From positions 95,375 through 153,298 of the forward strand of contig PS015213.1 in NCBI GenBank assembly GCA_048213135.1: a DNA stretch of 57,924 bases, in the 5' to 3' direction. Numbering within the stretch: the first letter of the stretch is position 1; every line of letters begins with the position of its first letter. Positions 1 to 57,924 of the stretch are shown piece after piece. This DNA is from Reclinomonas americana ATCC 50394. Taxonomy: Eukaryota. Below the pieces are notes generated by a model. The model did not search any database and was not told where the DNA came from. It saw nothing but the letters and a program-made list of their open reading frames with translations. The position numbers and the translations under genes were made by a program.

Positions 1-1371
1 AGCTACTACACACTGGCGCTGACCAAGGACGGAAAGGTGTATGAGATGGGTCGCCGGCATCGCGTGTACGGAAAGCACTCGGATCGTCCGCACATGTTGC
101 AGTGGTTCCAGCATCACGGAATCACTGTTCGGCGAATCGCCGCAGGAGCCACACACTTTGCTGCGATTGCAGGTCTCGCCGTCCCTGATTCATTCTTTGC
201 TTCTCCGACACTGAGCGCGTGTGCAGACAATGGGAATCTGTACATGTGGGGTGAGGCGACGGGAGGTCGCCTCGGGCGTGCCGGACTCGGCAACTACCAC
301 GACACACCCGTGCATGTGGAGACTCTGACCGGCGTCACTGACGTGGCTTGCGGGCAGATGCACACGGCTGCTGTTGCAGGTTTCGTTTGCGGGCGGCAGT
401 ACTCTCTGTGATTTTGCTCACACATCAAACAACAGAGTCCGGCAAGGTGTTTGTGTGGGGCGATGTTGCGTTGCTCGCTTCCGGTCGCCATTGTTTCCCT
501 ATTCGCACCCCCCCTTTTTTTTGCTCATGCTGCGAGCAGAACCACGCACTCCAACTCGGCCCGTTCAGCTGTCACAACTGGGAGACACCGGCGGATTTGA
601 GCTCGGTGGAGGAACGTGGCAGTGGCGACTTGCACGGACGACGGGCGGAGCGCGTCGTGGCGAGTGGCCACATGACAGCAGTGCTCACTGGTGAGAACAC
701 AAAAAACAGTCGCGGTGAGGTTGCGTCGTCTCACTGCTACNNNNNNNNNNNNNNNNNNNNACGCTCGCAGACACGCAAGGAGTCATCTCGTGGGGCCAAG
801 GTGACCACGGAAAACTGGGACTCGGCAGCGGTATCACCGTGCAGAGGGTCAGCAGCGCGTTGATCGCCACACATCACCCCAAATAGATCGCCGACTGTCT
901 CTCCTTTGTGTTGTGACAGATACCGCTGTCAATTGACGAACTGCGTGGCGCGGAGAGACGAGTGGCCAGCTTGTCGCTGGGTTTGGCTCACGCCGGCGCC
1001 ACGACCAGTTACGCGACGCTTGTTTCTCTCTCTTGTCTCACTCGTTACTGCCGCTGATGCCGCGCCACTGGAATGCAGCCTCGGGCGAGCTGTGGATGTG
1101 GGGCCACGGCGGTCATTTCCAGCTCGGTCTCGGCAATCTCTTTGACAAGTACAGTCCCACCCTCGGTACGTTATGTGCCATGCAGTTTTGGTTGCATCCC
1201 TGTGCCTCACTGTGCATTGTAGTGAGTGGACTGGGCGAAATGTTTGTCGAATCGGTATCGTGCGGTCTCCATGTTGCGTCCATCGCACCGCTGTCGTCTT
1301 TGACGTGAATCTGTCTGACTGTTGTTTCAATTGCAAAGCACACATTGGTCGTGTGTCGAGCGCCCGCCTAG
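1..1371 (+). CDS. RCC1-repeat (beta-propeller) protein, 3' part, spliced; 5' end lies outside the window
   Basis: Spliced translation gives successive RCC1 repeats (IAAGATHFAAIADNGNLYMWG, VACGQMHTAAVAESGKVFVWGDNHALQLG, LSLGLAHAGATTTSGELWMWG, VSCGLHHTLVVC). Introns include 173-226, 465-539, 1008-1078 and 1273-1338; TAG at 1369-1371. Confidence 0.9.
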
Positions 1372-1600
1372 TACATACACAGTGCACAAGCGGTAATTTC
1401 ATTCCTTCACGCTGCACACGCACACACACACACACACACACCTGCATAAAGAAAAATACGATTCACGTATATAAAGAAAAGACGAAAGTATTGCGAAACA
1501 GGATACAAATGGAGAGAGAGAGAAGAGAGGGATTAGGGACGTTAAACAGAATACATGCAGAACAAAAAATCAAGCAATAATAATGATACACCACCACGCC

Positions 1601-4600
1601 CTATCGTGATGAGCGATCGCCGCCGCCGGTACCGCTCGGGGCTGGCGCAGCGCGTGCCGCTGTCGCTGCCGACGGCATCTCTGGGGATTTGGGCGCGGAG
1701 GGAGGCTTGGGAAGTGGGGGCACCACCAGCTGTCGATGAGGCACAGTGGGATCGGATTCGGCGCGACGCGGACGACCGAATTGCGGCGAGAATCGACGAT
1801 CCGACAGGATCTGCACCTGGTCCGGAGTGTCGTCGTCGCCCGTGGTTTCGTCGTCATCCAAATCGTCGTCGCCCATCAGCACGTCACGCAGAATCGGTTC
1901 CGATCGAGACGGATGTGCTGCAGGATGCTGCTGCTGCTGCTGTTGCGGCTGCTGCAGTTGTTGTTGTTGATGCGCCGACGACGAAGNNNNNNNNNNNNNN
2001 NNNNNNNNNNNNNNNNNNNNNNNNNNNNNNNNNNNNNNNNNNNNNNNNNNNNNNNNNNNNNNNNNNNNNNNNNNNNNNNNNNNNNNNNNNNNNNNNNNNN
2101 NNNNNNNNNNNNNNNNNNNNNNNNNNNNNNNNNNNNNNNNNNNNNNNNNNNNNNNNNNNNNNNNNNNNNNNNNNNNNNNNNNNNNNNNNNNNNNNNNNNN
2201 NNNNNNNNNNNNNNNNNNNNNNNNNNNNNNNNNNNNNNNNNNNNNNNNNNNNNNNNNNNNNNNNNNNNNNNNNNNNNNNNNNNNNNNNNNNNNNNNNNNN
2301 NNNNNNNNNNNNNNNNNNNNNNNNNNNNNNNNNNNNNNNNNNNNNNNNNNNNNNNNNNNNNNNNNNNNNNNNNNNNNNNNNNNNNNNNNNNNNNNNNNNN
2401 NNNNNNNNNNNNNNNNNNNNNNNNNNNNNNNNNNNNNNNNNNNNNNNNNNNNNNNNNNNNNNNNNNNNNNNNNNNNNNNNNNNNNNNNNNNNNNNNNNNN
2501 NNNNNNNNNNNNNNNNNNNNNNNNNNNNNNNNNNNNNNNNNNNNNNNNNNNNNNNNNNNNNNNNNNNNNNNNNNNNNNNNNNNNNNNNNNNNNNNNNNNN
2601 NNNNNNNNNNNNNNNNNNNNNNNNNNNNNNNNNNNNNNNNNNNNNNNNNNNNNNNNNNNNNNNNNNNNNNNNNNNNNNNNNNNNNNNNNNNNNNNNNNNN
2701 NNNNNNNNNNNNNNNNNNNNNNNNNNNNNNNNAGGAAGAGGCAGTGGAGGCCGACGACGAGGCCGACAGGCGCGACGCATGAAGCGGCGACGCCAGTGTG
2801 ACCTTGATCTGCGTTCCGTGCTCCTGCCCGGGTCCCACGACTGACGACGGCGCCGAGTGCGACGACATGCGAACACGGTGAACGCTGGAGGGCGCTGACG
2901 AGTGCAGCGCGCGAGGTGGAGAGCGCGTACGCCGACTGTGCAGCGGTCCGCGTGGCCGCTGTGACGGCGCCGACAGCGGGGAACCCTCGTCGGGCGAACG
3001 CGGTGACAGCACGTCGTCCGGCGGCACCTCACGCTCATGCAAACTGTACGATTGCGGCTCAGGGTGCATGGACGAACCGGGGCTTGGCGTGCCCGACGAG
3101 CCGCCGCGACCGCCACCGCCACCAGCACCACCACCGCCGCTGCTGCTGGTCACCGATAGCGAATCCGGTTCCGATGCATTCTCCTGCGACCGTGTCCGNN
3201 NNNNNNNNNNNNNNNNNNNNNNNNNNNNNNNNNNNNNNNNNNNNNNNNNNNNNNNNNNNNNNNNNNNNNNNNNNNNNNNNNNNNNNNNNNNNNNNNNNNN
3301 NNNNNNNNNNNNNNNNNNNNNNNNNNNNNNNNNNNNNNNNNNNNNNNNNNNNNNNNNNNNNNNNNNNNNNNNNNNNNNNNNNNNNNNNNNNNNNNNNNNN
3401 NNNNNNNNNNNNNNNNNNNNNNNNNNNNNNNNNNNNNNNNNNNNNNNNNNNNNNNNNNNNNNNNNNNNNNNNNNNNNNNNNNNNNNNNNNNNNNNNNNNN
3501 NNNNNNNNNNNNNNNNNNNNNNNNNNNNNNNNNNNNNNNNNNNNNNNNNNNNNNNNNNNNNNNNNNNNNNNNNNNNNNNNNNNNNNNNNNNNNNNNNNNN
3601 NNNNNNNNNNNNNNNNNNNNNNNNNNNNNNNNNNNNNNNNCGCGTGTTTGATGGGAACCATCAGCGACCCTCGTGGAGACGGCCGTCGCGGAGGAGGCGG
3701 CGGTCCGACGAGTGCACGCGGCGAACCAACGAGTCCCATCGATGCTGGGCTGCTGAGATCGTCGCCAAAGCTGCACGTACACGGTGTGAATCCTCACATT
3801 TTCTTGGCCCCGCCTACGCCAGCACGACAAGCAAACCAACTACGCACCTCGACGCCGTGCTGTTGCACGACAAGCTCGAGTCCAGTCCACTACCACCACC
3901 ACCACCACCACCAGCTGCACCAGTGGTGCCTCCCACACTCAGCGAACCCGACAAGCCGGCGCCACCGCCAGAGACACCAGCAGAGGCACTGCCTATTGAC
4001 AAATCGGCACCGGCTGGCGTGCTCGCCGCGAAGCTGCCGGTGAGGGCACTGGAATCGAGCGCATCGCTCGAATGGTCATCGTCGCCGGGGTCGGAGAACG
4101 CCGGCTCTGGCGAATACGCATCGCCACACAGCTCCCGACTCAGCGGCTCAATGTGTGCACCAATGAGGGCCGCCGGTGGCGACACCGTGCCCTGCGGCAG
4201 CGACGACGACCGAGGCCGCGACGACGACGAGGAGGAGGAGAGCGGTGAACTCACATCGCCGTCCTCCATCGGGTACAGGCCGTCGGGATTGGTGTTGTGG
4301 CGCAGCCAAATGTTGCCGCGGTTCACCAACAGTGCCGGATCCACGGTGGCGGCAATGTTGGGCGACGACTGCCCACGCGACACGACGGCACTGAATGGGG
4401 CGGTGCTGCTGCCGGTCGACGCGTGATGCGAGTGAGCCGAGTGCACTTGCTGTTGCTGTTGCTGCTTGCGCCGTGCATGCAGAGGCATGCGCGCACCGGG
4501 CGGCAGATTTTGCTGGTGGAAGTGCTGCTGATTGTGGCCCGTGGACACAAACGAGCCACCGACAAATGGACCAACAGTCGATGCGTGCCGTGAGTTTTGC

Positions 4601-7600
4601 ATCTGTGGCATCACCACATTANNNNNNNNNNNNNNNNNNNNNNNNNNNNNNNNNNNNNNNNNNNNNNNNNNNNNNNNNNNNNNNNNNNNNNNNNNNNNNN
4701 NNNNNNNNNNNNNNNNNNNNNNNNNNNNNNNNNNNNNNNNNNNNNNNNNNNNNNNNNNNNNNNNNNNNNNNNNNNNNNNNNNNNNNNNNNNNNNNNNNNN
4801 NNNNNNNNNNNNNNNNNNNNNNNNNNNNNNNNNNNNNNNNNNNNNNNNNNNNNNNNNNNNNNNNNNNNNNNNNNNNNNNNNNNNNNNNNNNNNNNNNNNN
4901 NNNNNNNNNNNNNNNNNNNNNNNNNNNNNNNNNNNNNNNNNNNNNNNNNNNNNNNNNNNNNNNNNNNNNNNNNNNNNNNNNNNNNNNNNNNNNNNNNNNN
5001 NNNNNNNNNNNNNNNNNNNNNNNNNNNNNNNNNNNNNNNNNNNNNNNNNNNNNNNNNNNNNNNNNNNNNNNNNNNNNNNNNNNNNNNNNNNNNNNNNNNN
5101 NNNNNNNNNNNNNNNNNNNNNNNNNNNNNNNNNNNNNNNNNNNNNNNNNNNNNNNNNNNNNNNNNNNNNNNNNNNNNNNNNNNNNNNNNNNNNNNNNCCG
5201 AGCATCAGTAGCGGAGACCGAGTGCGGGCAGTGTTGCGCGGCCGCGACACGGCAATGTTGCGCTGTGTCGGCAAGGTCAACACAACATCACAAGCAAGCA
5301 GTAGAAAGAAAGTCACTCGCACACACTCACCAGTGACGGGTGACGAGTGTCAGCCAGCAGGGAGCCAGGACCATTGGGACCGCCTCCCTGCTGTGCGCTC
5401 GGGGCACCGGATCCTGTGCCACTGCCTGCACCGAGAGTCGACGGAGACGGTGATCGAGAAGAGGCGCGTGACGTGGGCGCTGACAGCGAGGAGCGCGCGG
5501 CGGCCAGCGACGACTCGGTAGCCGCACGGATGAGTGGCGCAAACATCACCGGCACGCCGGCAGCTGCTGCCGCCGATGCTCTGGAGGCTGCATTGGCGGC
5601 GGTGGCGTTTGCTGCTGCTGCCGCGGACGAGCCATCTGCATTTCAATAACAGAACACAGTGAGAAAGAAGCGACTCTCACAGCGCGACACACTGGCTCGC
5701 GACGCACCAATGACAGGGAGAGAGTTGCGATGCAAGTCAATCGCCGTTGATGTCGCATTCGGATCGAAATCTCCGACCATGAAGGGATGCACCGTGTCGA
5801 ACGCCGAATTGGATCGGGGACGCTCGTGCACGTAGCCCTGGAAGGCGAGGCGAGTGGCTTGCGACGGCGACAAATCCACTGACGGCGACTCGGCGCCACC
5901 ACCTTCACCTCCGGCACTGCTGCCGCGACCACTGCCCGCTGCCGACAGACTACCGTCGTTGGATGGATTGGCGCGCAGAACTGCGTGCGAAACACCAGGC
6001 TATACAAAAAAAACAGTCAGACGCCGCCAAGGAAGAAATGTCACTGCGCAATACAAGCGAGCGCGACNNNNNNNNNNNNNNNNNNNNNNNNNNNNNNNNN
6101 NNNNNNNNNNNNNNNNNNNNNNNNNNNNNNNNNNNNNNNNNNNNNNNNNNNNNNNNNNNNNNNNNNNNNNNNNNNNNNNNNNNNNNNNNNNNNNNNNNNN
6201 NNNNNNNNNNNNNNNNNNNNNNNNNNNNNNNNNNNNNNNNNNNNNNNNNNNNNNNNNNNNNNNNNNNNNNNNNNNNNNNNNNNNNNNNNNNNNNNNNNNN
6301 NNNNNNNNNNNNNNNNNNNNNNNNNNNNNNNNNNNNNNNNNNNNNNNNNNNNNNNNNNNNNNNNNNNNNNNNNNNNNNNNNNNNNNNNNNNNNNNNNNNN
6401 NNNNNNNNNNNNNNNNNNNNNNNNNNNNNNNNNNNNNNNNNNNNNNNNNNNNNNNNNNNNNNNNNNNNNNNNNNNNNNNNNNNNNNNNNNNNNNNNNNNN
6501 NNNNNNNGCAACTTCACGCGAACTGTGCTCACTGCTGTCGGCTGCCTCGCTGTCACTCGTGTAGCACACATCAAGATGCGTGCTCGGTGTCATTGTGACC
6601 TGCAGCCAGTCACAAAATATAGTGAGAAGAAGCAATGAAGAATAGGGGTGGGGGCACGCCGCACCTGGTCCAGTGACAACGATTCAGGCGTGACGCCGCG
6701 GTCACTCAGCGTGCCGCCCATGTGCGGTGACCCACCCGGCGTCATGCCCGACGAGCCGGTGCTGTCGACCATGGTTGCGGCAACACTGCTGTATGCCGGA
6801 GCCTGCTCGGAGGTCAGCTTTGCCAAGTTGGTGGCGTTCGTGATGTTGAAGCCGAGGAACTCGTCGGCATCACTGTCGTCCGAATCGACCTGCTCGATAA
6901 AGGCGAGCCAGTGAGCTTGCGGGAGAAGGGGTGAATACGCAAAAAGAAAGCTCGCGCACTGTTTCTGCATCGGCGGCTGCACTGCGCTCCTCCTTGGTGC
7001 TGGAGTCCGAGCTCGAGGACTCGTCGTCGTCGGAAATGACGTCGGACTTGATGGGATACACAGCGTGTCTCTCTGCACGAGTGGTGATGAGTGAGGGCGA
7101 CACGCACAGCATCATTGCGCGACTGCGGGTTCACACCTTCGAACAGCGACGTGTCCTCGTCGTCACCAGTCTCGGGCACATACTCGGCTCGCTGACGATG
7201 AATGTTCTCCCAGTCAATGGTCGCAAAGAACGGGTGTGCCTTGATTTCAGCAGCACCTGCGACACGCGATGACAATACCGTGAGGATGCGGCGGGAGAGG
7301 GCAAATAGAGAGTCCTCATCACCCACTCACCATGCGCTCCAAGTCGACGATTGGGATCACGACGCAAGAATTGCTTGATCAAGTCGCGTGCATCCTCCGA
7401 CACATCCTCCGGCAGATCGTCCCACGGAATGTCTACGGTAGGGTGAAGTGAGCACAATCGCGCACGTAGAGTGCAATGGAGTGCACGTCGGTGGCTCAAC
7501 TCAGTGAGAGAATGTTGTCAAAGATGGCCTCGGGCGTGGCGTCGTTGAAGGGTGGGCAGCCGGTGAGGAACTCGAAGAGACAGACGCCAACCGACCACCA

Positions 7601-10600
7601 ATCGATCGCGGCACCTGCGTCGTGCATGAGTTCGCCGCCGCCGTGTACAACATACACGATGGAGCCCAGCAAAAGCACGCAACTCTGTTCGAGGCCGAGC
7701 AGCACCTCGGGACTCATATAATCCGGACTGCCGCACGCGCTGCCGAGACGCTCGCGTCGACCCTCTTTCTCACCAGTTGGCGACATGGCCGACGGCGGTG
7801 GGCGCATCGGCGACTTGCCAGTCATGTCCACCGTCTCGTCCATGAACGGGTCTGTGTGGTTGATACACAGATGTGGGTTCAGTAAAAAGATGGTGAGTAC
7901 CGGTGATGATGCAAAGCACGTCACCGTCAACAAGGCCGGCACGAGCGAGGCCAAAGTCAGACAGCTTCACGTGTCCATCGGTTGTGATCAGCATGTTATC
8001 CGGCTTGATGTCACTGCGGTGGCGGAAACAATCAATGAGTGCGAGACAGCTGACATATTTTTTCTTTCGTTTCACACACAAAAACACACCGGTGCAAAAT
8101 GTCGTGCGAATGCAGATACTCGAGAGCCAACACGACTTCGGCAATGTACTGCCGTGCCATGTTCTCGGGGAACTCGCCGAAACGCTGCAGCAGCGCGAAC
8201 AAGTCGCCGCCGTTGAGGAACTCCATCACCAGATACAAATGTTTCTGCGATCCAGACGAGTCGCGAGTCAGCATCATACCAACACGCCACACACACACAC
8301 ACAAGCTATCGTTTTTGTGCTTCACCTTGCCCTGGAACGAGTAGTAGAAGCGCACGAGGAACGGGTTGCTGGTCTGCGCCAGCACATCGCGCTCGGCCAG
8401 CACGCGCTTCACCTGCTTCCGCCGCACCATTTCGTCCTTGCGCAGCACCTTGATGGCGTACAGGTCGCCAGTCGAGAGCTTGCGCGCCAGGAACACGCGA
8501 CCAAATGCACCGCGAGAGATGCACTTGATGACACGGAAGTCGCGAATCGACATGCCACGCGACTTGGGCTGTGTGAGCGCCACGAGGTGAGTCAGCCACC
8601 CACCAGTGGGGAGAGAAAAGACTAGCACCGCCCTTCCAACTCACCCTTGACAACAGGCGCGGGGTATTCGGCTCCGACAGGAAGCTGGCATCCTCGCTCT
8701 CCTCGAATCGTCGCGGAGTACTCATGTTGGACGCTGCGACACTCGATCGGTAAGGGAGGAACTTCTGTTCTGTGACATGCCTTCCTCTACGCAACAAAAC
8801 GTGTCGTCGCCAACAAAGTCGTGCGCAAAGGGCGAGTGCGACTGGCCCGACATGTGGTACGTGTGATCGCCGTGCATGTTGGGTGACTGCGCCTCGGAGC
8901 CAAACAACTGCGGCGAGTCCGACGAGCCCGGCAGGCGTGGCGAGTTGTAATCCGACCCAGAACCGGCACCCGTAACACCAATCCCGAATGGATTCGAGTC
9001 CAGCGAGATGTGCGGGTGTTCTTGACTTCGGCTCGACAGCTGATGCCACCAATCATATCATCATCAGTGGGAAGTGATCAGGGCGACAGACGAAACGACA
9101 ACTGGCACTCACCGGTGAGTCAATCTCTTCGCGTCCTCGTGGCACACGCGGCGACATCGAGTCCATGCTCTTCCTTCCGACGCCCAGCTCGGGATTCGGA
9201 CTGGGAGGCATCAGGCCAAGCTGTAACTAGCACAAAGCATTACCATGTATGAGCAACGCAATTGGCCAATGAAGCAAAAAGCTCTGCGCGTCGCAACTGA
9301 GTCCGGTTGGAACTGGTCCAGTGACGACGACGAGTTGCGACGCGAGTGCGTCCTCGATCCCGCCACCGTCGACATGTAACGACCGGCAGCCGACGCGGCA
9401 CCGTCCTTGAGTGCCGCCAGCTTGTCAGCCACCACACTCTCGATACGCCGCGCAAACACCATGAGGTTCTCGTTGATGTGTGGTGCACTCTCCTGCGTGG
9501 GGGAGGGTGAGTGACAGACAACTCGTGATGGTGAGAATCGAGGAGAGTACGCACTTGGATGAGATGGCTAATGTGCGAGAAGAGCGTCTGGCAAGCCACG
9601 GGCGACTCGTACGGGCCACAGTTCAGCTTCAAGACGCTGTGTGCCGACAAACGAAAGTGGTGAGTGAATTCTAGAAAACAGTGGAAGCAGGGCGACAGCA
9701 CACGCAACTGCATGGCCAGCAGGTACAAGTTTCGCATCACCGGAATGTCCGCATCCTCACAAGCATTCACCGTGGCCTCGTCCTGCACCAGACACAGATG
9801 AGTGAAAAATAGGGTGGTGATGCACATGGGAGAAGAGTACGTACCCAGTTCTCGGCTCCCTGCGGCATCTTCTTGCGCAACGCTCGTGCCAGCTGCGGCG
9901 GAGATGAGCACGTCGCCCGCAACACTCAACACGCCCACACACTTTCTCTTCGCCTCACCTTGCGTAATCTCTCGTCGCAGCTCGATGCCTTGACACCACT
10001 GTTGCTAAACTTGGTGCAATGGCGCGAATGCTCCTCCAGCATGTCCACTGGCACCACCTCCTCGCAGATGCGGCACAAGAGATCGAGTGCCACCGGGCTC
10101 TGCGGCGTCGGAGCCGGCAAGTCCGAGTGGCGTCGAATAAGTGGTGGTGCTGATCGCGCGCTCGTCGGTGGTGAATACGTGTAGCTGCCGACAGCTGTGC
10201 GCGGGCGATTGTGGTAAAGTGGCGGAACTGTGGGACTTGACCCATCTGCGTGCAGATGTCAATAAATGACGCGGGTGGCAAAGTCACCGCAATGGGCGAG
10301 AGAGAATGACACACACCTGCTGAATCGATAGATCCAGTAGACAACGGCTGAGGTGGCACGCCACCAACTTGCAGAGCGATCGGGTGCAGCGGTTCCAGCG
10401 CAGCCTATTCACATTTGTTTTCTTCGAGTCAGCTTGTGTGGAATCACCTGGAGTCACGCACGACACACAGCGATGTACCTGGTGCGCAGCACTGCTGCTG
10501 TCGTCGTCATCATCATCATTCCCCGCGAGGAGACGTCCGCGATATTGCCCGGTGCCACTCAGCTCGCCTGTCGGCGAGAGCGGCACTGAGGCCATGCTAT

Positions 10601-14176: not shown

Positions 14177-14885
14177 ATGTCAGGCGCTTTCGTTCGTGGT
14201 GCGCGTCGCGCAATGTCATCGAGTTGCGTCTCCTCTGTCTGTGTGCCTGTGTGAATGCACACTCCTTCCTCTGTGTGTGTGTGTGAGTGTCATGTTAACT
14301 GTCGACCGCATCTTGCATCTTTGAGCGTATCTCTCTTTTCTCACACTTTGTGTGTGGTAGGTGCTGGTGGCCACGGCAACTCGACCAACACCTGGCGGCT
14401 GGTCAGCTACGCCGGCATGGTCGCCGTGCCCGTGTTTGTTGCGTCGACACACATACACACAAAGAGAGAGAAATGCAACTTGTGATGAAACTGATTCTGT
14501 GTTGTTGCACAGGGCGCGGTGGTGCTCTTCGGCGGGTTGCGTAACACGCTCCACTTGTGCCACACACACGCACGCACGCACAGAGAGGGAGAGGGAGAGA
14601 GAGAGACGGGGCATCGAGATGGCGCATCACTCTCTCACACTCTCCCTCCCCCGTGTCTCTTTTTGCCTTGTGTGCTCCACAGTGACCACAGCCACCACCA
14701 CGAGCAGAAGCCGTTCGCCTACAAGACGTTCCACAAGCAGGCCACGGTGTCCCACAAGCCCTTCCCCTGGGCCAACAAGGACTGCACTCTCTTCCAGCCT
14801 GACGTTGCGTCCCAGCAAGAGAGAGAGCCTCCAGTGAGTGGGTTGCTTACTTGTTATACAGTGCGGCAAGGAGGAGCACCACTAA
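14177..14885 (+). CDS. COX6A: Cytochrome c oxidase subunit 6A (5 exons)
   Basis: Exons 14177-14222, 14361-14437, 14513-14535, 14683-14803 and 14862-14885 give MSGAFVRGARRAMSS...NTWRLVSYAGMVAVPVFGAVVLFGGDHSHHH...KPFPWANKDCTLF. This shows a presequence, one TM helix and the KPFPW..TLF signature. Confidence 0.88.
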
Positions 14886-45338: not shown

Positions 45339-46923
45339 TCAATCATCTTCACCGGGTCGGCACACCAGCACCTGCGCGCACGTTCGTGCAAAGTGTGAAT
45401 TTCCCAGCATGTACGTCGACGCATTCCAGAAGATCGCCGACTCACCGAGCATGGTGCATGGCTGCTCACCACATACAGATATGAACCAATACGCGCATCA
45501 GCAACAAGAGAACAACGGACGTCGACGTCGACCACACTTCGAACAACGCAACTGCACAACGTACTCGGAAACGCTGCCGATCAAAGCTCGCTGGGAGACA
45601 ATGAGCAGCAGAAGAGGGATGCACAAAGGAACCCCCGAGTGCCTACCTTTATTGCGCCCATTCCGCGCGATCCAATGACTGCAGAAGAGAATGAGGAAAA
45701 AAAAGATGCTGCGGAAAGATGCGACGGGCGACGACGTAACTGATCATGTCGACGCGCTCGGCAGTCGCCAGCTCCACCAGTCCCTCTCGTGCCTTGACNN
45801 NNNNNNNNNNNNNNNNNNNNNNNNNNNNNNNNNNNNNNNNNNNNNNNNNNNNNNNNNNNNNNNNNNNNNNNNNNNNNNNNNNNNNNNNNNNNNNNNNNNN
45901 NNNNNNNNNNNNNNNNNNNNNNNNNNNNNNNNNNNNNNNNNNNNNNNNNNNNNNNNNNNNNNNNNNNNNNNNNNNNNNNNNNNNNNNNNNNNNNNNNNNN
46001 NNNNNNNNNNNNNNNNNNNNNNNNNNNNNNNNNNNNNNNNNNNNNNNNNNNNNNNNNNNNNNNNNNNNNNNNNNNNNNNNNNNNNNNNNNNNNNNNNNNN
46101 NNNNNNNNNNNNNNNNNNNNNNNNNNNNNNNNNNNNNNNNNNNNNNNNNNNNNNNNNNNNNNNNNNNNNNNNNNNNNNNNNNNNNNNNNNNNNNNNNNNN
46201 NNNNNNNNNNNNNNNNNNNNNNNNNNNNNNNNNNNNNNNNNNNNNNNNNNNNNNNNNNNNNNNNNNNNNNNNNNNNNNNNNNNNNNNNNNNNNNNNNNNN
46301 NNNNNNNNNNNNNNNNNNNNNNNNNNNNNNNNNNNNNNNNNNNNNNNNNNNNNNNNNNNNNNNNNNNNNNNNNNNNNNNNNNNNNNNNNNNNNNNNNNNN
46401 NNNNNNNNNNNNNNNNNNNNNNNNNNNNNNNNNNNNNNNNNNNNNNNNNNNNNNNNNNNNNNNNNNNNNNNNNNNNNNNNNNNNNNNNNNNNNNNNNNNN
46501 NNNNNNNNNNNNNNNNNNNNNNNNNNNNNNNNNNNNNNNNNNNNNNNNNNNNNNNNNNNNNNNNNNAAGCAACAGTCACGCACTCGTCGACAACACACAC
46601 ACACACACCACGCAGACAGAGAGAGAGAGACCTTTGCGGGATGCACTCTTTGCGTGACATCGATGCTGCCGTGATGCACGCCCAGCAGACCCTCGACTTG
46701 TGCCCACGCCACTGAGAGTGCCTCGGTGACCTTGGGGTGTGTTGGTGGCTTCTTGCCCGCACACATGGCCAGAATGATCTCGTCACTGCGTGTGTGTGTG
46801 TGTGAGCGGAACAACAGAAACACTCACTGCGCACACGGACCCTGGTGCGGCCAGTTGCGCGGCCTTGACAGCTGCGCGGAGACAGCCATCGCTGCCGTCG
46901 ACTGCCACCAACATGCGCGTCAT
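45339..46923 (-). CDS. Universal stress protein (USP/UspA domain)
   Basis: MTRMLVAVDGSDGCLRAAVKAAQLAAPGDEIIL... and, after the gap, [38 protein letters not shown], the USP G-x2-G-x9-G(S/T) motif. Introns include 45679-45740, 45462-45552 and 45372-45445. Confidence 0.92.
45462..45552 (-). other. Representative minus-strand intron with shifted donor (A|GTTGCGT...CAG)
   Basis: Removing this interval restores the USP motif [12 protein letters not shown] (CA|C). Confidence 0.88.
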
Positions 46924-47285: not shown

Positions 47286-49773
47286 ATGAGGTTTGTCGAC
47301 TTGCCTCTGCCTGCAGTTGCGTTGCCGCTCTTCCCGCACCTCATCTCTCTCCTGCCTCTCACTGCACTGTTCGCGGTGTTGCAGGAGGTGTGGCACAGTT
47401 TCGTTCTCCGCTCATCGCCCTCTGCTCTCTCTTCCCCCAGTCTCACTGCGAACGTGCACAGATGTGTTCTCGTTTCTGACATCCGCAGATGTGCGATCAG
47501 TGGCCACCGTCGGTGTCGGTGTTGCGCCGCTGTTTGGTACGCGCGAGAGTGAGTTGTCAGTTCATACATGACTGTCTCTCTGTGTAATCCACACTCCACG
47601 TAGTGTGCGGCCTGCACGAGGTGACAATGGCGTTGCGTGCTGGCACGTACCAACAGCTGCATCGGCTTCTTCGCGAGGAGGAGGCCGTGCGCATGTGGCA
47701 TCGCTTCCGGCTGGAGGTGACTGCGCCGGTCAAGGAGAGTCGTCGTGCAGCGTCGTGGTTCGTGCCGGCGTTGCTGTCGCGTGCACCGCAGTTGCAGTCG
47801 CTGGAGATCGATGCGAGTTGCGTTGTTGTTGTCGGGCGACGTGACTTGGTGTCGATGGCCGATCGATACGCAACAGTTGTTCCGCCGGGTGTCGGTTCGC
47901 CGGAGATGCGTGACGCACAGCACTGGTGGCTAGGCTGTGCTGGTGGCCCGGGTGTGGATGGTGGCGATGCAGATGCAGATGACGACGATCTGCTGCTACA
48001 ACTGGGGGACTTTGATGCCGACGACGAGGATTTTCGCCAGCAAGATGACGACTTTGATGACGACGACGACGACGACGACGATGACTACGAGACTGCAGGC
48101 GGTGGTGCTATGCTCGCGGTGCGCATGTGGGAGGCGTCGCAAGCACGACGAGCTGCGCGGCATGGCGGTGGTAGTGGCGGCGGTGGAGTTGAGCGTACGC
48201 TAACCACGGCGCAGCGGTGGTGGGCGAGTGCACTGGAGGCGGTGTCGGGCGCCACTGCCCTCCGATCGCTGTGCATCCGCTTTGAGCGACCTCCAGTGTC
48301 GGTACTGCATGCTGCCACGTGTAGTCCGCTGCCCTCTCGCGCCCTGCTGTGTCAGCTGCGCATGCTGACCATTGGCGGCGTGGTTCTGTCGCTTGGTTGC
48401 GTTGGGAAAAAGTGTGTGTTGGGAGCATTTTATGTGGCTACGCTATTCATCCGCAGTGTTTTGCAGACGATCATGTGGCCCTCATGCAAATCGTGTGCAC
48501 GGATCCCGCATGCACGACGCAGCACCTCACGCTGTCGGGTGCGCTGTGTCTTTGGCGGTTTCTTCGCGTTGTGCCACAAAAATACTGAAAAATGAGAGAC
48601 CTCGCCACAGGCACTCTGCCGCTGGCCCGCGCAACCGACATTCAGCGCACAGTAGAGGCGCTGGCAGAGCAGCTGGGCATGTCGGCGAGTCGCGCTCTGC
48701 CACTACTGACGTTTGAGTTTGCCGACAATCAGCTCGATCCACGGGAGCTGCAACCGTTGCTGGCAGTGGTTCGCGAACACCGCAAGCTGGTGCACTTTGG
48801 TGTCGGCGGCCACCGCCTGTTGGGGTCGACGGAGGGCGTGCAGCTGGTGGCCAACGAACTGATTCGGCGAACGTCCTCGTTGCGCTCGCTGTCGGTGGCC
48901 GGCGCTCCGGGAACGCTGGTTTCGCTGGACCCCATTTTCGATGCCATCAGCTCCGACGGGGTGTGTCGACTCACCTCGTTGGACTTGTCGCGCGTGTGGA
49001 GTTGCGCAACGCGCACGCCAGAGAACGCCACAAACGCACCCACTCTGTCCTGACATCTGAGATACAGCACTCGACAATATGAATGTGGCCGAGCCGGATC
49101 CTGACGCCATGTCGGTGGCTTGGGCGGCGCTGCGCGAATCGCCGCTGGTCACACTCAAGTTGAATGGTGCGTGCATGAGGCGCGTGTTGGCGGCCTTTCC
49201 GCCTTTCTCATTCTCGCGACACAGAGAACTGGCTCCACGAGGACGATCTGGAGATGCTGGGCACGGCGGTGGTGTGGAGCAGCAGTCTGGAGGTGCTGGA
49301 GATCAGCGGCATGATCCTGGATCCGGACTCGATTGCAGGTATCCTCATCCCAGTTATCCGCGTGTTGAAGGGTGTGGCTCAAGCCGGGGGTACGCAGCGT
49401 TCGACAACCTCGTGCGACTGCTGGTGAATGACAGCGCGCTAAAGACACTCATCGCTCGTGGCAACGATCTGAGTGGTGCTGGCCTCGTCTCGGCGCTGCG
49501 TCACAATGAGACACTCCAGCATTTGGATGTGCAAAGTTACCACGCTTCTCTTTTTTATGACTGCGTGCGCTGGACTCACACACGGCCTGTTCTGCAGACA
49601 ATGCCGTAAGTGCAACCACCGTCCAGCGTCTCACCGACTCACTGCTGCTCAATGGCGGTCACGTGCTGCGATTTCTTGATCTGCGCTACAACGACGTGAG
49701 CCGCGATGCGGAGACGTGTGCATATACCGCGAGCACTCTCGTTGCTGCCGGCGTCTTCGACATCCGGCTTTGA
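47286..49773 (+). CDS. F-box / RNI-like leucine-rich repeat protein
   Basis: Exons 47286-47315, 47385-47397 and 47462 onward give LPAEVWHNVFSFLTSADVRSVATV (F-box). LRRs include LQSLEI, LRSLSV, LTSLDLS, LVTLKLN, LKTLIARGNDL, NETLQHLDVQNN and LRFLDLRYNDV. TGA at 49771-49773. Confidence 0.8.
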
Positions 49774-49811: not shown

Positions 49812-52668
49812 TTACAGATGATGGAAATGGATGGACTTGGAGCGACGATTGAAACGCTGCTCCCAGTCGGTCGCGTCAGGAGTTCTTGCGAGCGCCTGCT
49901 CGGCTTCACCTGTCGAGGCGACTGTCAGGTGTGCAAGAAGTGGCGGTCCTATGCTTACGCACACATAGTGTGACTTACCATCGCTGTTGACTAGTGGTAC
50001 AGAGAGCGCACGCAAACGGGCGCTCTCGGTGGTCGGCAGCATGGCGACAGACGCCTCCAACTCGATGGTTTGCGCCGATTGTGCGTTAGGGTCGGTCGCC
50101 GTATCTTGCAAGTGCACTGGCTGAAACGGGAGAGGCGTCAGCTTGAAGGCACGGAAGCCGTCGCAGTTGGTCAGATGCTCGTTCTCCACACGAATGAAAC
50201 TCCACACGACACGGCGAGTGACTTCGGCGGCGGCGAGACCGACTTGCACAAACGGTCTCGCCAGACTGTTGCGTACAATAATGGTAACCTGCACGACGAG
50301 AGTCACGACAAGACAACGGGGGGGAGAGCACGCGCGCACACACGTACCTGCACGATCCATGCCATGCGGAGAACACAGTTGAGGAAAAAGGCCACATAGT
50401 ACACAAACTTGGGGAACGTCAGTTGCTGCAAAAAAAAAAAAACGCAAGCAATGAGCACGCATGCATGAGAGTTGGCAGAGAACGAAGCCCATATGGCGAG
50501 CTCTCAACCTTGCGAAGGAGCCAGTGTTTCTTTTGCTTGAAATCCAACAGTCCCCAGTCCATCTGTTTGCGGCGCGCAAGTGGGTACATGCACGCATGTA
50601 ATGAAGCAAGCTCTAGGCGCCGCACAACGAAACCTTCAAGTCCCAGTACAGACGAAGGACCGCCGATACGACGTAGCTGACGATCAGTGGCACCAAGTAG
50701 CGCCCATCGTACGTCTCGAGCACACCAAACACGACGTTGGGGAACGCCGAAAAATACTTGACGGCGTTGGCCAGATGTGGCCACGCGTGACGCGTGTCTC
50801 GATACCGCCGTAAGCATTGCAGCATGCGCCACAGATACGGCAAGCCCAGTGCCAGTGCAGTGATTGTCCGATTCAGCGTCAGACCAAGCGGAACCTCACT
50901 TGTCGCCACGGCCGCCATACTCGCGAAGAAGTCGTTCAGCGCGGATGTCAGGCTGGTGAAAATGTCGCCGAGGAACACGTCGCCAAACGTCACCATGTGG
51001 AACGGCGCCGTCACGATACGGAAGGTGGTGCGCAGGAAGAGCATGCGACCCGAGTAATTCATGATGCGAAACGGGTTGATCAGCACCAAGACCACTGCAA
51101 CGGAACGTAAGTGAACACAGAGAATTCGAAGACGGCTATCGCGAAGGCTCACACACTCGCACCGACCGCAACCACAGGATACACAAACACTTGTCGTGGA
51201 ACGGCGGTCTTCAGGTCGGACGAGATAATGGTCATCCACACCAAGAAGAAGACGCCACAGACCGCCATGAAAGCCGTGGCCACTGCCAGTGCCCTATGCG
51301 GGGTGAGGGTGGTGCGAGGGTCGAAGCCAAAGATGAACACGTAGTTGATCTTGTACAGTTGCCACACGTATGTGTTGAGGCTCCAGCCGACAAAGGCCAA
51401 GCCAATCACAAACAGGCAGCGGAATAGAGCCAGCTCGGCGGCGTAGTGCGCCGAGTTGATACTCGTCGACACATCGCCGTTGAACATGAAGCCGAGGGCC
51501 ATGAGGCACGATGCTGTCAGCCCGATGAACAAACCTCCGAGGAACGAGTCGGCGTGATGCGGTTGGCGCATTCCGCGAACCGACAGCGACGACGACGAGG
51601 TGGGCATGCGCGGATTGTGCACAAACAGCTTCTCGAAGAGTCTCTCCAGCTGATCGCACACCTGGCTGAGCTCAACCGCGTGCCGACCCAAATCCCACTC
51701 CTCGATCTTCTGCTGCGTGTCGGCCAGCGTCGCCTGGGGGGCGTGTCGACGCGCGCGCATTTTCTTGCGCACTTTCTTGAGCATCTTGAGTGCGGCCGTC
51801 ACGTTGAGAATGCTTTGCGCGAGATGCATGGAAGAGTGTCAGTCAGGCAGCAGGGGGGGCAAGCAACAGCACTCAAAAGATGAAGAGGAGGGCTCACCAA
51901 AAGTTCTCGAGGTGGAACACCATCGAGTACTGCTCCTTGAACGTGCGCTCCGCCGCGCTCAGCAGATCCGCGTACTCGGAGGCCGGCATTCTGAGCGCGT
52001 CCTTGGAGAGGAGCGAGCGAGGCGCCACCGTCTTCAGTTCCTCCCACCGCTGCATTGCCGGTGCCACGCGTTCCGCAAAGAAGCTGCTGGCCTTGGCCAT
52101 TTGCACGCGGTACGCCTCCAGAATGAGCTCCACGGCCAGCGCGCGCGTCACACACGGCACTTGGCTCGCCTCCAAAGCATCCAGCTGCAATGAGTTTGAG
52201 TGGCGTGAGAGGAAGAAGCGTCCAAAGGCGACGCGCACGCACGCATGCGCACGCACCTCGACAATCGCCGACACGCCCAGGTTGAAGTGCCGATTGATGT
52301 GACCGAGGCGCTTGATGACGGTGAACGAGTCACTCGCCGGCAGACTCGGCTCACTGCTGGAATCCACTTCCACAGCTGCCGCTCCTGCCGCACCGCCGCT
52401 AACCAGTGACACAAGCTCGGTGTTCGCGCCCTCCGACGACACGGAATGCGCTCGGTGCTCACGTAGCTTTTGGCGCACACATGCGTGAACAGAGTGCACA
52501 GAGAGAGAGGAGAGGAGAGGAGAGGGAGAGAGAGAGGCCGCTCACCGGAGCAGGGAGTGCGAGGGCGTCGCCGAGGATTGAGACCATTTTCTTCAGCGCC
52601 TTGTAAGCAAAGTACTGCGAGAACCATTCGGGCACCGAGTACTCGTAGAGACGACGCCCGAATTTCAT
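49812..52668 (-). CDS. SPX-EXS domain phosphate exporter (XPR1/SYG1/PHO1 family)
   Basis: SPX: MKFGRRL....[13 protein letters not shown] and [99 protein letters not shown]. Confidence 0.95.
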
Positions 52669-53235: not shown

Positions 53236-54578
53236 ATGAGTGACAGCGCAGCGAATGGCCACACGTCGTCGCGACCGACGCAGGAGCTAAAGATCCGCGA
53301 CTTGAACACCAGAGAGGGACCAGGTGCGTTGGCGATCGCATCTCATCGTCGATCCAATGTGTCGACGTCACACACACTCATGATCGCACACACATGCACA
53401 GGAATGACCACTGGTCGCGCCCTCGCCATTGTGTGTCTGGTACTGGTCGGCGGAGCGATCGCTTGCTGCGTCCTCGGCCTCAAGTCGTGGCACTGGATGT
53501 TGCGTGTGTGTGTGTACGGTTTCGCAGCTCTCCGTCTGAAAACTCACGCTGTCACTCTCCTCCCTCTCTCCGCGTGCCTCCGACGACACAGCAAACAAGA
53601 CTGCAGACCGGCGTACTATTTCGAAGTCGGCCTCCGCAATGGGTTTGTTTGCTGCAACAGCCAATCATGAAACTTGTCACTTTCCGCTCTTGTGTGACAC
53701 TGGCGTGTGCACGCAGGTGGCTGTGCACGAACTACGACGACCCTGTGAATGGACCGGCGTGCTACACGGGGAGCACGAGTGACGCGCAGATCAATCGCGT
53801 CGTTGCGTGTGTTTTTCGATATTTTGTAGGTGGTCTGATCACATCGGTGAACGCGTTTCCCTCTCTCGACGCCGCAGACGCTCGGTGTCGGTGCCAGTGG
53901 CACGGGCATGGCCTGCCTCCTCTTCGTCTTCCTCTTGATCTATGTGATTCGACCGCTGACCGCGATCAAGTGGGTGTGCGCGGTGCGTCCAACAGAAAAC
54001 TGTCGATGTTGTCGTCGTGTCGTCTCACATCGTGTTGCATGTGTTTGTCATTGCAGGTCATTTCCTTCATCTCGTGGGGGGTTCGTGCGATGCTGGTTTC
54101 CCTGTGCCTTAGTGTGTGATCGCTGTGCTCATGCATTTTTCTTCTGCTGCAGCTGTGCCTCGCCGCTGTCGCGTACTACACCAACCAGAACACGCTCGGA
54201 CCGTGCGACCCGCTGTACGGAGTGAACGGCAAGGCAGTTGCGTCGAATGCAGGGATGCATGTGTAGTGCACCTGGCGTCGTGCTTCCTCTCACTCGCCCC
54301 TTTCCGATTGCAGAAATGGGACTGGAGCTACATCATCTTCTGGTACGTGAACTGCTGCTGCACTCGCGTGTGGCGTGCTGCCCTCCGTGCTCACACGCTA
54401 CGCATGCAGGGTCGGCACGTGGCTCGTGTTTGTGACGCTCATCCTGTCCTTCTTCTTCCGCGATGACGCCGCCGCTCGCCGGGCGGTGAGTCCCTCCGCC
54501 GCCAACTACACTCCATCGGGACGGGCAAAGGATGTCGAGGCTGGCCATGGCACGACCGACAACAAGTCAGCCTGGTAA
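53236..54578 (+). CDS. Claudin/PMP22-like four-TM membrane protein (alternative start at 53404)
   Basis: The spliced product has four hydrophobic segments, a first loop W..GL..C..C (HWIKQDC..EVGLRNGWLC..PAC) and WDWSYIIFW before TM4. The family assignment rests on pattern only. Confidence 0.6.
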
Positions 54579-54781
54579 TTCGATATCGCAGTGCGTTTTT
54601 TATGTATAGAATACTCGATTAAGAATCAGTCGGCGTGCTCTCTTTTTCTTCGTCTGCGTTTGTCTCGCCTTGAATAAATATTTGCAAAAGCTGCAACGTT
54701 CATTCGGAGCGTTCCGAACACATCGTATTGGGTGTCTCACTTTTGTCGCTCTTCTCGCACGCACAGGCAACCCCGCCCCCC

Positions 54782-56994
54782 ATGGCATCTGGTGAGTGCA
54801 CGTCAGAGGCACTTGCACACACTGTGTTTCACAGTCGACTGGGAGAGGGAGAGAGAGAGAGCACTGCATTGCAACGAGAAGCGACGACTGATGCATCGGA
54901 GCATTGTGTGTGTCACCATTCACTCACTCATTCGCACTCGTGCATGCATGCACGCACGCAGCTGCAGGATCCACCAACCGAATCGCCGCGACGATGCTCG
55001 ACCTCGTCGGTGGTGCGTGCGTGAGAGACAGAGTGTGTGGTCGTCTGATTGCATGTGCTCACGTGAATGCACGACAGGCACACCGATGGTGTACCTCAAC
55101 CGCGTGACCGAGGGCTGCGTCGCTCGCGTCGCCGTCAAGCTCGAGGCGCAAGAGGTGTGTCTGTGTGTGTGTCTGTGTGTGTCTCGACAATGGTGGACCG
55201 ACATGTCGCACTCACGCCCTCTCCTCGCACGCGCGCGCACGCAGCCTTGCGGCTCGGTGAAGGACCGCATTGGCAAGGCGATGCTGGATGACGCCGAGGA
55301 GCGCGGCATCATCACACCCGGCATCACGACCATTATCGAACCCACATCAGGGTGCGCACAGCGGCAGCAAGCTGTATCTCTCACTCGGGTTTGCAGCGTT
55401 ATTCACAGCTGACTTTTCTCGCTTGCTTGTTCTTTTCTTTTCCCTCTCGTGCGCAGCAACACTGGCATTGCGTTGGCCTTTGCCGCCGCCGTCAAGGGCT
55501 ACAAGGCCATCCTCGGTGAGGCCGCCCTCCCTTTCAGTTGTATGCTGTGCTGTGTGTTCGGTCTGCTCACACTTTTTTTTCGTTTTCCCACGCAACACAG
55601 TGATGCCGGATAGCTTCTCGATGGAGCGCCGTGTGTTGTTGCGTGCGTTTGGTGCCGAGTTGGTGCTGACGCCGCGCGAGTTTGGCATTCCCGGAGCTGC
55701 AGTTGAGTTTACCCGACATGTCCCTCCGCCTTTATCTGTCGCCTCACTCTTGCCCCCACTCCCTCGTGCTGCAGCGCAAGGCCAGGCAGATGCTGGAGGA
55801 GATCCCGAACTCGTGGATGCCCAACCAGTTTGGCAACCCAGCCAATCCTGCGATCCACTACAACACGTTGCGTTCCTTGTGCTGCGGGTGTGGAACGAGT
55901 GGAAAAGTGAAGGCTCACTCCACACGCACACGCAGCACTGGCCCGGAAATCTGGCGCGACACCGCAGGCGAAGTCGACATTTTCGTCGGTGGTGTGGGCA
56001 CTGGTGTGTGAATTCGACGAGTTTCGCCCCCTGCTCTGCTGGCTCACTCATGTGCGTCCTTGTGTCAGGCGGCACCATCTCCGGTGCTGTCAAGTTCCTG
56101 AAGGAGCAGAAGCCGAGTGTGAAGGTGCCGCCATAACTGATCGTGCTGTGTGCACATCTCCTCCTCACTGATGCACGCGCGTCGGCATGCAGGCGTTCGC
56201 CGTGGAACCCGTCGAGTCGGCTGTCCTCAGCGGCAACAAGCCCGGTCCGCACATGATCCAGGGCATTGGCGCCGGATTCAAGCCAGATGTTGCGTGCGCG
56301 TGTCGCGCCGACAAGAATCGACAATGTCTGTGCTCACTGGCAGTGCAGATCTATGACAGCGAGGTGGTCGACGGAATCATCCAGGTTTCGTCACAAACCG
56401 GTGAGTCTAGCGCAGCGCACTTTTGCATGATTTGTGTGTGTGCTCACGAAGCTGGCACACAGCTCTGACAATGGCGCGCCGCCTGCCCAAGGAGGAAGGC
56501 ATCTTCTGTGGCATTTCCAGCGGTGCAGCGGTGTGTGCCAGCAGCGTGCAGGGCAGTTGTGCTCTTTCTCCCCCCCCCCCCCTCACCTTGTGCACAGATT
56601 CACTGCGCAGTGGAGCTGGCAAAGCAGCCGGAGAACGAGGGCAAGCTGATTGTCGTTGCGTCTGTCACAGTCATGCAAGCAAAGTCGGTTTCGTTGGCGT
56701 CCCCCTCCTCATCGCTTGCGTATCTCGTCAGGTGGTGGAGCCCAGCTTTGGCGAACGCTGTTGCGTCGCAATCATTGCTGTCTGTGCTGTGTGAGTTTGT
56801 GTATTCACTCGGATGCGCTTTCTGCAGACCTGTCAACTGCTCTGTTCAAGGATCTCTTTGATGAATGCTCCGCCATGCCCACGGTTCCGTGCCCACCACC
56901 ACCGGCCGCGGCGGCTCCTGTCCCAGCTCCTGCTCCTGCTCCGTTGTCGCCAAATTCCGGTGCCGGAGCCTCGACCAACTCATCCGCTCTCTAA
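54782..56994 (+). CDS. cysK: Cysteine synthase A / O-acetylserine (thiol)lyase, 15 exons
   Basis: [24 protein letters not shown] (PLP lysine), [60 protein letters not shown] and PSFGERYLSTALF. Confidence 0.96.
55867..55935 (+). other. Representative intron with shifted donor (C|GTTGCGT...CAG)
   Basis: Removing exactly this interval restores the conserved cysteine synthase motif HYNTTGPEIW (AC|C). Confidence 0.9.
56760..56827 (+). other. Representative intron with shifted donor (T|GTTGCGT...CAG)
   Basis: Removing this interval restores GERYLST (codon T|AC = Tyr). Confidence 0.9.
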
Positions 56995-57268
56995 AGCACA
57001 CCCCGTGCTTCCGCTTTGTTGGCGAGAATGTAGTGGAGACTGTTTCGTTAAGTCACGCGACTGCAATCTTTGCATTTCCGAGAGCCTTGACCCTTCGTCC
57101 TTGTGCACTTCAACCCCTGCATCTGACTCTTGATCCTTGGCACGACAACTAGAAGGTGATCAAGGTTGGCCCTCCGCGCACGTCGCTTCCGTCTCGTCGC
57201 AGTTGTCTCGTGTCCTCTTCGAGCGTCCTACTTCGTTGCTCCCTTTTCCGTCTCGTCGAGAACAAGGA

Positions 57269-57924
57269 ATGCTGTTCAGAACCGCACGGCGGTACATGTC
57301 ATTCACATGGCCGGGGTCAAGAGCCCTCGATCAGATCGTCAAGCTGCCTCTTCTCATGCGGTCCGCGCAATGCATTCCATGCCAGTCCTTCATTCAACGC
57401 TCACTCTGCACGCACACAGTGAACCCAAAGAACGTGTGGCAGCCATCTGGTCGGAGGTGTGTGTGTGTGTGTGTGCACGTGTGTGTGTGCACGTGTGTGT
57501 GGGTGTGCATTGTCGGGGAAGTCCTCTCATTCCCATGTTGCATGCAGCATCATCTGAGCCGGAACGATGCTGTCGCAATGACTCTCAACTCGAACGTCTT
57601 CCAGGACTTGCAGGCGCACTGCAAAGCATGGTCTCCTCTCCTCCCTCCTTCTATCCCCGCGCTAGCCGTCGTCTCCTCACGTCTCTCCCTCTGCAGTCCC
57701 ATGTTTGTCTTGCCACTGATCAAGGGCGAGGGCTACTTGAGTATGGTGGCACAGTTCCAGGGTCAGCATTGTCTCATGACACCACTGGAGGAGTACCGCA
57801 CGAAGAGTTGAGTGGGAGGGAGGGGAGGCGGGGGGAGAGGGACGACAGGCTGAACCGCTGGCGCCTGCAGGTGTGAATGCAATGCCGGCATTCACGATTA
57901 CGTTTTACACTGAGCTGGAGAAGG
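57269..57924 (+). CDS. ATP11: Mitochondrial F1-ATPase assembly factor ATP11/ATPAF1, 5' part (runs off the window)
   Basis: LDQIVKLPLLM.E..ERVAAIWSEHH, CPMFVLPLIKGEGY..VAQF, MTPLEEYR and FTITFYTEL. Confidence 0.87.

Follow-up and report, generated by a model that had tools for sequence, protein, structure and literature searches.

GTTG-type 5' splice sites after non-G exon ends in Reclinomonas americana and their possible recognition one base out of register

Where is an intron cut, and in which register is its 5' end read, when the donor appears to carry an extra T? The question is raised by a 57.9-kb scaffold piece of Reclinomonas americana ATCC 50394 (contig PS015213.1, positions 95,375 to 153,298; "the window" below means this whole stretch of 57,924 nucleotides), which has a G+C content of 59%, contains 13 N gaps and is dense in genes with multiple short introns. 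The ordinary donor consensus here is AG/GTGCGT (the slash marks the exon-intron border; lower-case letters below are exon bases), whereas a second, "shifted" set of introns opens with GTTGCGT or a close relative. The heptamer GTTGCGT occurs 42 times, 32 times on the forward and 10 times on the reverse strand; dinucleotide-preserving shuffles give 13.75 +/- 4.0 copies and reached 42 in 0 of 100 trials, and once simple repeats are excluded it is the most over-represented 7-mer of the window. As described below, the window has two donor classes coupled to the last exon base (-1), with the cut at GT and with flanking preferences that correspond once one class is displaced by one base. That GTTG donors form a class used after non-G exon bases was the claim of a preliminary description of this DNA, and the observation is confirmed.

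The coupling is seen most directly in introns fixed by protein homology. Proteins were aligned to the genomic sequence with a spliced aligner of our own, which allows GT..AG introns of 40-400 nt and scores split codons; it was applied to the genes for cysteine synthase (10 homologues), seryl-tRNA synthetase (5) and an SPX-EXS protein (8). GC donors, which appeared solely at badly aligned ends of the first spliced alignments, were dropped, and GT alone was used thereafter. The statistics use 22 homology-fixed introns; one more, at 56531, was settled later and is omitted from them. Among the 22, G stands at -1 in 1/7 GTTG donors versus 15/15 others (Fisher p = 9.4e-5).

The cysteine synthase gene (forward strand) contributes 13 introns, each supported by 7 to 10 of 10 alignments, in which all 8 ordinary donors follow G and all 5 GTTG donors follow another base. 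The shifted introns lie at 55702..55774 (a/GTTGAGT), 55867..55935 (c/GTTGCGT), 56289..56348 (t/GTTGCGT), 56655..56731 (c/GTTGCGT) and 56760..56827 (t/GTTGCGT), the fourth being supported by 9/10 homologues and the others by 10/10. The ordinary ones, with 10/10 homologues unless stated, are found at 55013..55077 (g/GTGCGT, 7/10), 55155..55244 (g/GTGTGT, 90 nt and in frame), 55352..55456 (g/GTGCGC, 9/10), 55516..55600 (g/GTGAGG), 56004..56068 (g/GTGTGT), 56125..56192 (the degenerate g/GTGCCG), 56401..56462 (g/GTGAGT) and 56531..56597 (g/GTGTGTGC, donor GTGTGT, 9/10, the one outside the 22). The intron at 55155-55244 has no in-frame stop and so escapes frame-based gene finding; both gene models introduced below miss it, and homology alone found it.

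The seryl-tRNA synthetase gene (reverse strand) has one shifted intron, 25147..25210 (a/GTTGCGT, 5/5 homologues), beside ordinary introns at 25838..25905 (g/GTGGGT, 4/5), 25713..25772 (g/GTGTGC, 3/5), 25547..25601 (g/GTACGT, 4/5), 25380..25440 (g/GTGAGC, 5/5) and 24420..24479 (g/GTGTGG, 5/5). Homology of the SPX-EXS protein (reverse strand) is weak; the four junctions retained, each supported by 3 to 6 of 8 alignments, are 51813..51897 (ordinary g/GTGAGC, 6/8), 50563..50633 (g/GTTTCGT, 4/8), 50426..50508 (g/GTTGAGA, 6/8, a shifted donor after G and thus an exception) and 50289..50347 (ordinary g/GTACGT, 3/8). The SPX-EXS donor at 51156/51162 was excluded as ambiguous.

For the rest of the window we used a self-trained, two-strand generalised hidden Markov gene model in two versions. 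Model A sees nothing of the donor but intron bases +1 to +9, is therefore blind to base -1, and had the verified (homology-fixed) introns excluded from its training; it called 166 introns and recovered 17/22 verified ones. In its output G stands at -1 in 7/45 GTTG donors versus 82/114 others (p = 8e-11), with 7 GTGTGTGT donors from (TG)n repeats set aside, and the table of G at -1 against T at +3, which the preliminary description had proposed, gives an odds ratio of 0.21 (p = 3.4e-6). Model B, which includes exon columns, called 178 introns and recovered 19/22. Across the 151 introns called by both models the counts are 6/44 GTTG versus 81/107 others (p = 1.3e-12), and leaving out those with lengths divisible by 3 gives 2/25 versus 65/82. 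The strict class GTTG[CA]G makes up 39 of the 151 (26%), with A 18, C 9, T 8 and G 4 at base -1.

An artefact of chance or of the gene model would be one explanation of such counts, since the majority of junctions are predicted and the model makes false calls. Yet the GTTGCGT excess survives shuffling, the association holds in the homology-fixed introns alone, and it persists in the both-model set after the verified introns are removed (5/37 GTTG versus 71/97 others). It also holds under no donor model at all: when every GT received an equal bonus, 175 introns were called, 17/22 verified ones were recovered, G stood at -1 in 5/33 GTTG versus 71/142 other donors (p = 3e-4), and the commonest donor 7-mer was still GTTGCGT. 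We therefore regard an artefact as hardly credible. Earlier decoders were set aside: a regular-expression seed list of introns was noisy; a decoder working on one strand with a flat donor called too many introns (354 and 367) and lost the signal under harsher penalties; and single-strand decoding with position weight matrices placed genes on both strands everywhere and was replaced by the joint two-strand decoder. Mirror-image false introns arise on the opposite strand because the donor GTGAG and the branch motif CTCAC, and likewise CTG and CAG, are reverse complements; one stretch, for instance, scores as an intron on either strand (8587-8656 forward, 8569-8644 reverse), in a kinase gene that lies on the reverse strand.

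These sets also bear on the details of the preliminary description. Its count of 41 out of 46 shifted donors following A, C or T is compatible with 35/39 non-G in the strict class and 38/44 across all GTTG donors, and the five G-preceded cases that it had listed are present (14536 cgg/GTTGCGT, 26235 tcg/GTTGCGT and 48396 ttg/GTTGCGT, with 21504 gag/GTTGTGA and 50508 aag/GTTGAGA on the reverse strand). Its statement that nearly all other donors follow G is borne out by the 15/15 verified introns; in the noisy predicted set the figure is 72-79%. The degenerate G-preceded donors that it cited were found at 173 (ag/GTCTCG), 36802 (cag/GTCTGT) and 19187 (aag/GTACAT), while GTGCCG starts at 56125 rather than 56124. 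The donor at 173 is present in the sequence yet absent from the gene-model calls, and for 19187 the model instead chose a 45-nt intron at 19217, which looks worse than the 75-nt intron that 19187 would give. The unshifted strong donors said to follow non-G bases are likewise there (9554 a/GTGCGT, 20987 a/GTGCGT, 21152 t/GTGCGT and 20623 a/GTACGT). One suggestion fell away, namely that G/GTTCGT donors have a shifted counterpart H/GTTTCGT (H being A, C or T): of the 6 predicted GTTTCGT donors, 3 follow G (380, 28074 and 50633) and 3 do not (41791, 47398 and 57042).

The position of the cut was examined at the five cysteine synthase GTTG introns. Donor and acceptor were moved independently from -4 to +4, and the spliced protein of each of the 81 combinations was rescored against 6 homologues. 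Intron length was unchanged in every top solution; the GT..AG solution was the best or at most 2 points below the best, and it was the sole top solution whose ends are canonical. For the intron at 56760, every one of the 80 other offsets scores 54 or more points below the GT..AG junction, and a cut after the G, giving a TT..GN intron, was rejected (5405 versus 5459). At the other four, a cut one base later that keeps the G in the exon gives non-canonical ends and was discarded. With junctions fixed by homology in 7 GTTG introns, cleavage of GTTG donors thus stays at GT.

We then compared the two classes position by position, setting ordinary A-G/G-T-G-C-G-T against A/G-T-T-G-C-G-T. In composition, base -1 of the GTTG donors (A20 C10 G7 T8; model A, n=45) is not separable from the ordinary base -2 (p = 0.42) but differs strongly from the ordinary base -1 (p = 1.4e-9). 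Relative to codon-position expectation, A is in excess both at GTTG -1 (20 versus 8.0, p = 3e-5) and at ordinary -2 (35 versus 21.3, p = 0.0017), and G is depleted at both (7 versus 15.0, p = 0.011; 23 versus 34.0, p = 0.024); the apparent avoidance of G before GTTG is therefore the ordinary preference at -2, met one base later. The same positions seem to compensate for a poor intron side: A is found at -1 in 10/13 imperfect GTTG donors versus 8/26 perfect GTTGCGT (p = 0.015), and at -2 in 26/55 weak versus 3/25 strong ordinary donors (p = 0.0025). On the intron side, the GTTG consensus at +4 to +7 (G, C, G, T) equals the ordinary consensus at +3 to +6, whereas a same-position comparison finds GTTG +k different from ordinary +k for k = 3 to 6 (p = 1e-14 to 1e-29). 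The GTTG copy is tighter, carrying 1.09, 1.09, 1.49 and 0.65 bits at +4..+7 as compared with 0.32, 0.24, 1.02 and 0.36 bits at ordinary +3..+6, as expected if a T replacing the second G of a shared template has to be compensated. The composition of the flanking positions thus supports a shift of register.

These observations suggest a single 5' splice-site template, roughly A-G-[G/T]-T-G-C-G-T, with the cut made at the first GT inside it. Were the third letter G, the cut would fall behind the template's G and give the ordinary AG/GTGCGT; since recognition would then draw on both G-1 and G+1, such donors could be highly degenerate in their intron part. Were it T, the template's G would itself become the first intron base, as in A/GTTGCGT, so that recognition would be offset from cleavage by one; with one G of the pair fewer, such a donor would require a near-perfect TGCGT. 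On balance we lean, by a little, towards this account of one template cut at its first GT, with GTTG sites recognised one base out of register. The likeliest reader would be the 5' end of U1, a small nuclear RNA (snRNA), with G+1 opposite C9, A-1 opposite U10 and U+3 opposite A7, and we infer that the template is read by U1 and not by U6 or a protein. U1 departs before catalysis and therefore need not define the cut. Given GT..AG ends, an intron could not change from one class to the other merely by sliding one base.

Several points weigh against a register shift read by U1. Nearest-neighbour duplex energies were computed for a generic U1 5' end taken from PMC4856993 (this and the other papers cited here are drawn on in excerpt), which may not be the organism's U1. 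The mean best energy of the 45 GTTG donors with it is -0.51 kcal/mol in the canonical, -0.96 in the shifted and -0.89 in the bulged register, as compared with -5.45 kcal/mol for the ordinary donors (n=125); the GTTG values are close to zero throughout, this generic U1 thus favours no register for the GTTG donors, and the energetic argument fails for it. This U1 end also fails to pair with the C that both classes prefer at position +4 of the template, so that either the organism's U1 differs or another factor reads that base. The compensation tests were picked post hoc, and A is not in excess at GTTG base -2 (10 versus 8.1 expected, in a small sample of n=45), in contrast to ordinary base -3 (39 versus 22.5 expected). 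Nor is the shift obligatory, because non-G exons also take the unshifted strong GTGCGT, which accounts for 7/26 predicted donors that are neither G-preceded nor GTTG. Finally, 22-23 junctions rest on homology and the remainder on predictions of a self-made gene model, of which version A misses 5/22 verified introns, and in cysteine synthase two GTTGT calls, at 56556 and, by model B only, at 55537, are contradicted by homology. The register-shift interpretation offered in the preliminary description is therefore upheld by composition, compensation, the +4..+7 consensus and the cut at GT, but not by energies with a generic U1.

The same energies leave room for two other recognition schemes. In the first, G+1 and U+2 would pair normally, U+3 would be bulged out and the following GCGU paired, by U1 or by U6, and non-G exons would simply need a strong intron side. 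In humans the bulge at +2/+3 belongs to the validated registers, with 68 predicted sites (PMC4856993), and the GTTG donors resemble it in having the extra U right behind GU, followed by the normal intron-side consensus; its energy here, -0.89, is on a par with the -0.96 of the shifted register. The compensation half of this explanation also has precedent: the trade-off between an exon-end G and intron-side strength, whose anticorrelation is general in eukaryotes, has been described as seesaw linkage and as two classes, AG//GUNNN and NN//GURAG, which share one register and whose split is ascribed to U5 and U6 (PMC11732430). In the window, too, an exon-anchored degenerate class is anticorrelated with an intron-anchored strong class, the latter carrying 1.09-1.49 bits versus 0.24-1.02 for the ordinary donors. 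Here, however, members of the strong class carry an additional T at +3 and their exon-side preferences are displaced by one position, which the excerpt describing the seesaw classes does not parallel. A bulge would also place base -1 opposite C9, predicting that G is favoured or at least neutral, whereas G is depleted there; the A that is enriched and compensatory at this position fits U10 instead, so that the GTTG donors depart from the bulge +2/+3 register in preferring A, not G. It would further leave unexplained the roughly 5 to 1 excess of shifted over plain H/GTGCGT donors (35 non-G GTTG[CA]G versus 7). We consider a bulged U with seesaw compensation unlikely.

The second scheme invokes two recognisers behind the coupling, one of which, be it a second U1 variant, a changed U6 or a changed protein factor, would be matched to GUUGCGU and serve the GTTG class. 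It would account for a generic U1 that pairs badly at +4 with both classes and barely at all with GTTG donors, and variant U1 genes exist in other organisms (PMC3561869). Against this, an Rfam scan for snRNAs within the window gave 0 matches, so that no U1, U6 or U5 can be read there, and the classes share all flanking preferences once shifted, for which one reader is simpler. We rate separate recognisers as rather improbable.

Could the GTTG introns instead have an origin of their own? Introners, recently inserted intron-generating elements with a GTTGCGT end and an insertion-site preference, would yield the high uniformity of the 7-mer, and such elements are known from small algae (PMC3879977). 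However, an all-against-all comparison of the N-free predicted introns (of 178) gave only 4 reciprocal short pairs and no class-specific family, and GTTG[CA]G donors are present in 14/15 gene models with at least 3 introns. GTTG introns also match the others in median length (69 nt versus 68 nt), in phase (16/20/9 versus 56/46/23), in C at acceptor position -3 (42/45 versus 119/125) and in the branch motif CTCAY, whose score (p = 0.52) and distance (p = 0.22) do not separate the classes. The shared length, phase, branch site and acceptor, together with the unrelated intron sequences, point to one spliceosome rather than a transposon family; an introner origin is already close to refuted, and we give it very little probability. 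A U12-type origin was likewise rejected, as the GTTG donors have neither a /RTATCCTT donor nor a TCCTTAAC branch site, and their branch motif is CTCAY as elsewhere. Branch sites across the whole window follow the consensus TGCTCAC (CTCAY) and lie some 18-20 nt ahead of the exon, the usual, purine-bearing CTRAY form being in the minority; about 95% of predicted introns end in CAG. One predicted donor on the forward strand, g/GTATCCTCA of the intron 49339-49397, is U12-like; it has a low score and no U12-type branch motif, and is probably due to chance.

Further GTTG introns, called by both gene models and predicted on that basis, are spread along the window. On the forward strand, t/GTTGCGT opens the introns at 465..539 (a shifted donor in an RCC1 gene), 1273..1338, 14438..14512 and 19826..19897; c/GTTGCGT those at 14804..14861, 16740..16807, 18306..18373 (in the nucleoside transporter gene), 19369..19437 and 53802..53877; and a/GTTGCGT those at 37753..37838, 38297..38369, 40074..40152 and 54237..54313. 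The exceptions after G (g/GTTGCGT) are 14536..14682, 26235..26300 and 48396..48466. Donors with small departures from the heptamer are c/GTTGCGC at 18426..18497, t/GTTGCGC at 19594..19651, a/GTTGCGC at 20195..20260, 42006..42073 and 49001..49067, a/GTTGCGA at 20285..20344 and a/GTTGAGT at 57807..57870. The reverse strand carries a/GTTGCGT introns at 7615..7683 (in the kinase gene), 9637..9708 and 45462..45552, t/GTTGCGT at 8734..8795, c/GTTGCGT at 28127..28192, a/GTTGAGC at 7433..7500, a/GTTGCGA at 9221..9297 and a/GTTGCGC at 22513..22593 and 20783..20838. The last of these is also the last intron of a family X DNA polymerase (PolX) gene, where the models' call is backed by a reading of the sequence.

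At the 3' end of the PolX gene (20783-21228, reverse strand), four successive introns leave tiny predicted exons of 14, 20 and 13 nt, and their donors are unshifted, strong and preceded by a base other than G (t/GTGCGT at 21228, t/GTGCGT at 21152, a/GTGCGT at 21057 and a/GTGCGT at 20987). After donor 20987 the next intron is the a/GTTGCGC one at 20838, and the joined frame stays open until a stop; the joined 3' exons may encode a polymerase C-terminus. At 720 (forward strand) a g/GTTGCGT lies 5 nt past an alternative donor, g/GTGAGG at 715, and the intron, which holds a 20-N gap, could open at either. (TG)n microsatellites yield high-scoring GTGTGTGT "donors", for example at 8298, 13520, 14277, 32586, 53504 and 57493, to which self-training gave a mixture component of their own; near 53504, a t/GTTGCGT at 53499 adjoins the (TG)n donor and is likelier to be the true one.

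Genes were placed by running Pfam over 267 stop-to-stop open reading frames (ORFs) of at least 100 residues. The forward strand has RCC1 repeats at 1-1400, a Tmemb_185A match at about 16.0-18.1 kb, a nucleoside transporter at 18.8-19.9 kb, the pyridoxal phosphate-dependent enzyme of the cysteine synthase gene at 54.7-56.9 kb and ATP11 from 57.1 kb. On the reverse strand lie a protein kinase (7500-8640), PolX (near 21.7-22.1 kb), the class II tRNA synthetase of the seryl-tRNA synthetase gene (24.3-25.3 kb) and the SPX-EXS protein (49.8-52.9 kb). The closest named seryl-tRNA synthetases are those of red algae and bacteria, at 58-62% identity, and a homologue search with the nucleoside transporter ORF gave none.

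How does this arrangement compare with known systems? The closest is the shifted register of U1 at atypical human 5' splice sites (Roca and Krainer 2009, as described in PMC4856993), in which the usual U1 partner of exon G-1 lies opposite the first base of the intron, a G, with cleavage remaining at GU. The GTTG donors would be alike in that the intron G replaces exon G-1, the pairs are displaced by one and the cut is at GU, and an example oligonucleotide in that excerpt is laid out like them. Shifted and bulged registers were proven in human cells by suppressor U1 experiments and were studied on rare single sites with minigenes; according to the same source, the validated non-canonical registers together make up 1.5% of human 5' splice sites, unlike the 39/151 predicted introns (26%), in nearly every gene, of the GTTG[CA]G class here. 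The GTTG donors further differ from human shifted sites in that their U+3 could additionally pair with A7. A second comparison is with Mamiellophyceae such as Micromonas, where AG/GTGCGT is the ordinary donor consensus (PMC3879977), identical to that of the window. Those algae are intron-poor, with CTGAC branch sites 43-52 nt upstream, unlike the CTCAY motif about 20 nt upstream in the window, and the excerpt mentions no GTTGCGT class. Within the literature searched we found no description of a GTTGCGT donor class; supplements lay outside its scope, and their donor logos could already show the class. The evidence thus partly supports the view that about one intron in four here uses a register known, as a rarity, from humans.

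A practical consequence concerns annotation: a gene finder that relies on one donor matrix will get GTTG junctions wrong, and our own model needed a separate component for them and still erred. The broader claim, that recognition is offset by one base from the cut in at least a quarter of this lineage's introns, with U1 reading AG[G/U]UGCGU and the cut being set independently at the first GU, strikes us as a serious possibility that falls just short of probable; U1 might do so with a co-evolved 5' end or through a second U1 variant. If true, recognition of the 5' splice site would be uncoupled from its cleavage naturally and across the genome, with thousands of natural test cases in which shifted sites stand beside ordinary ones in the same genes. 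It could then reveal how the cut is fixed once U1 has gone, how U6 takes the extra base, and how exon and intron signals are traded off against each other.

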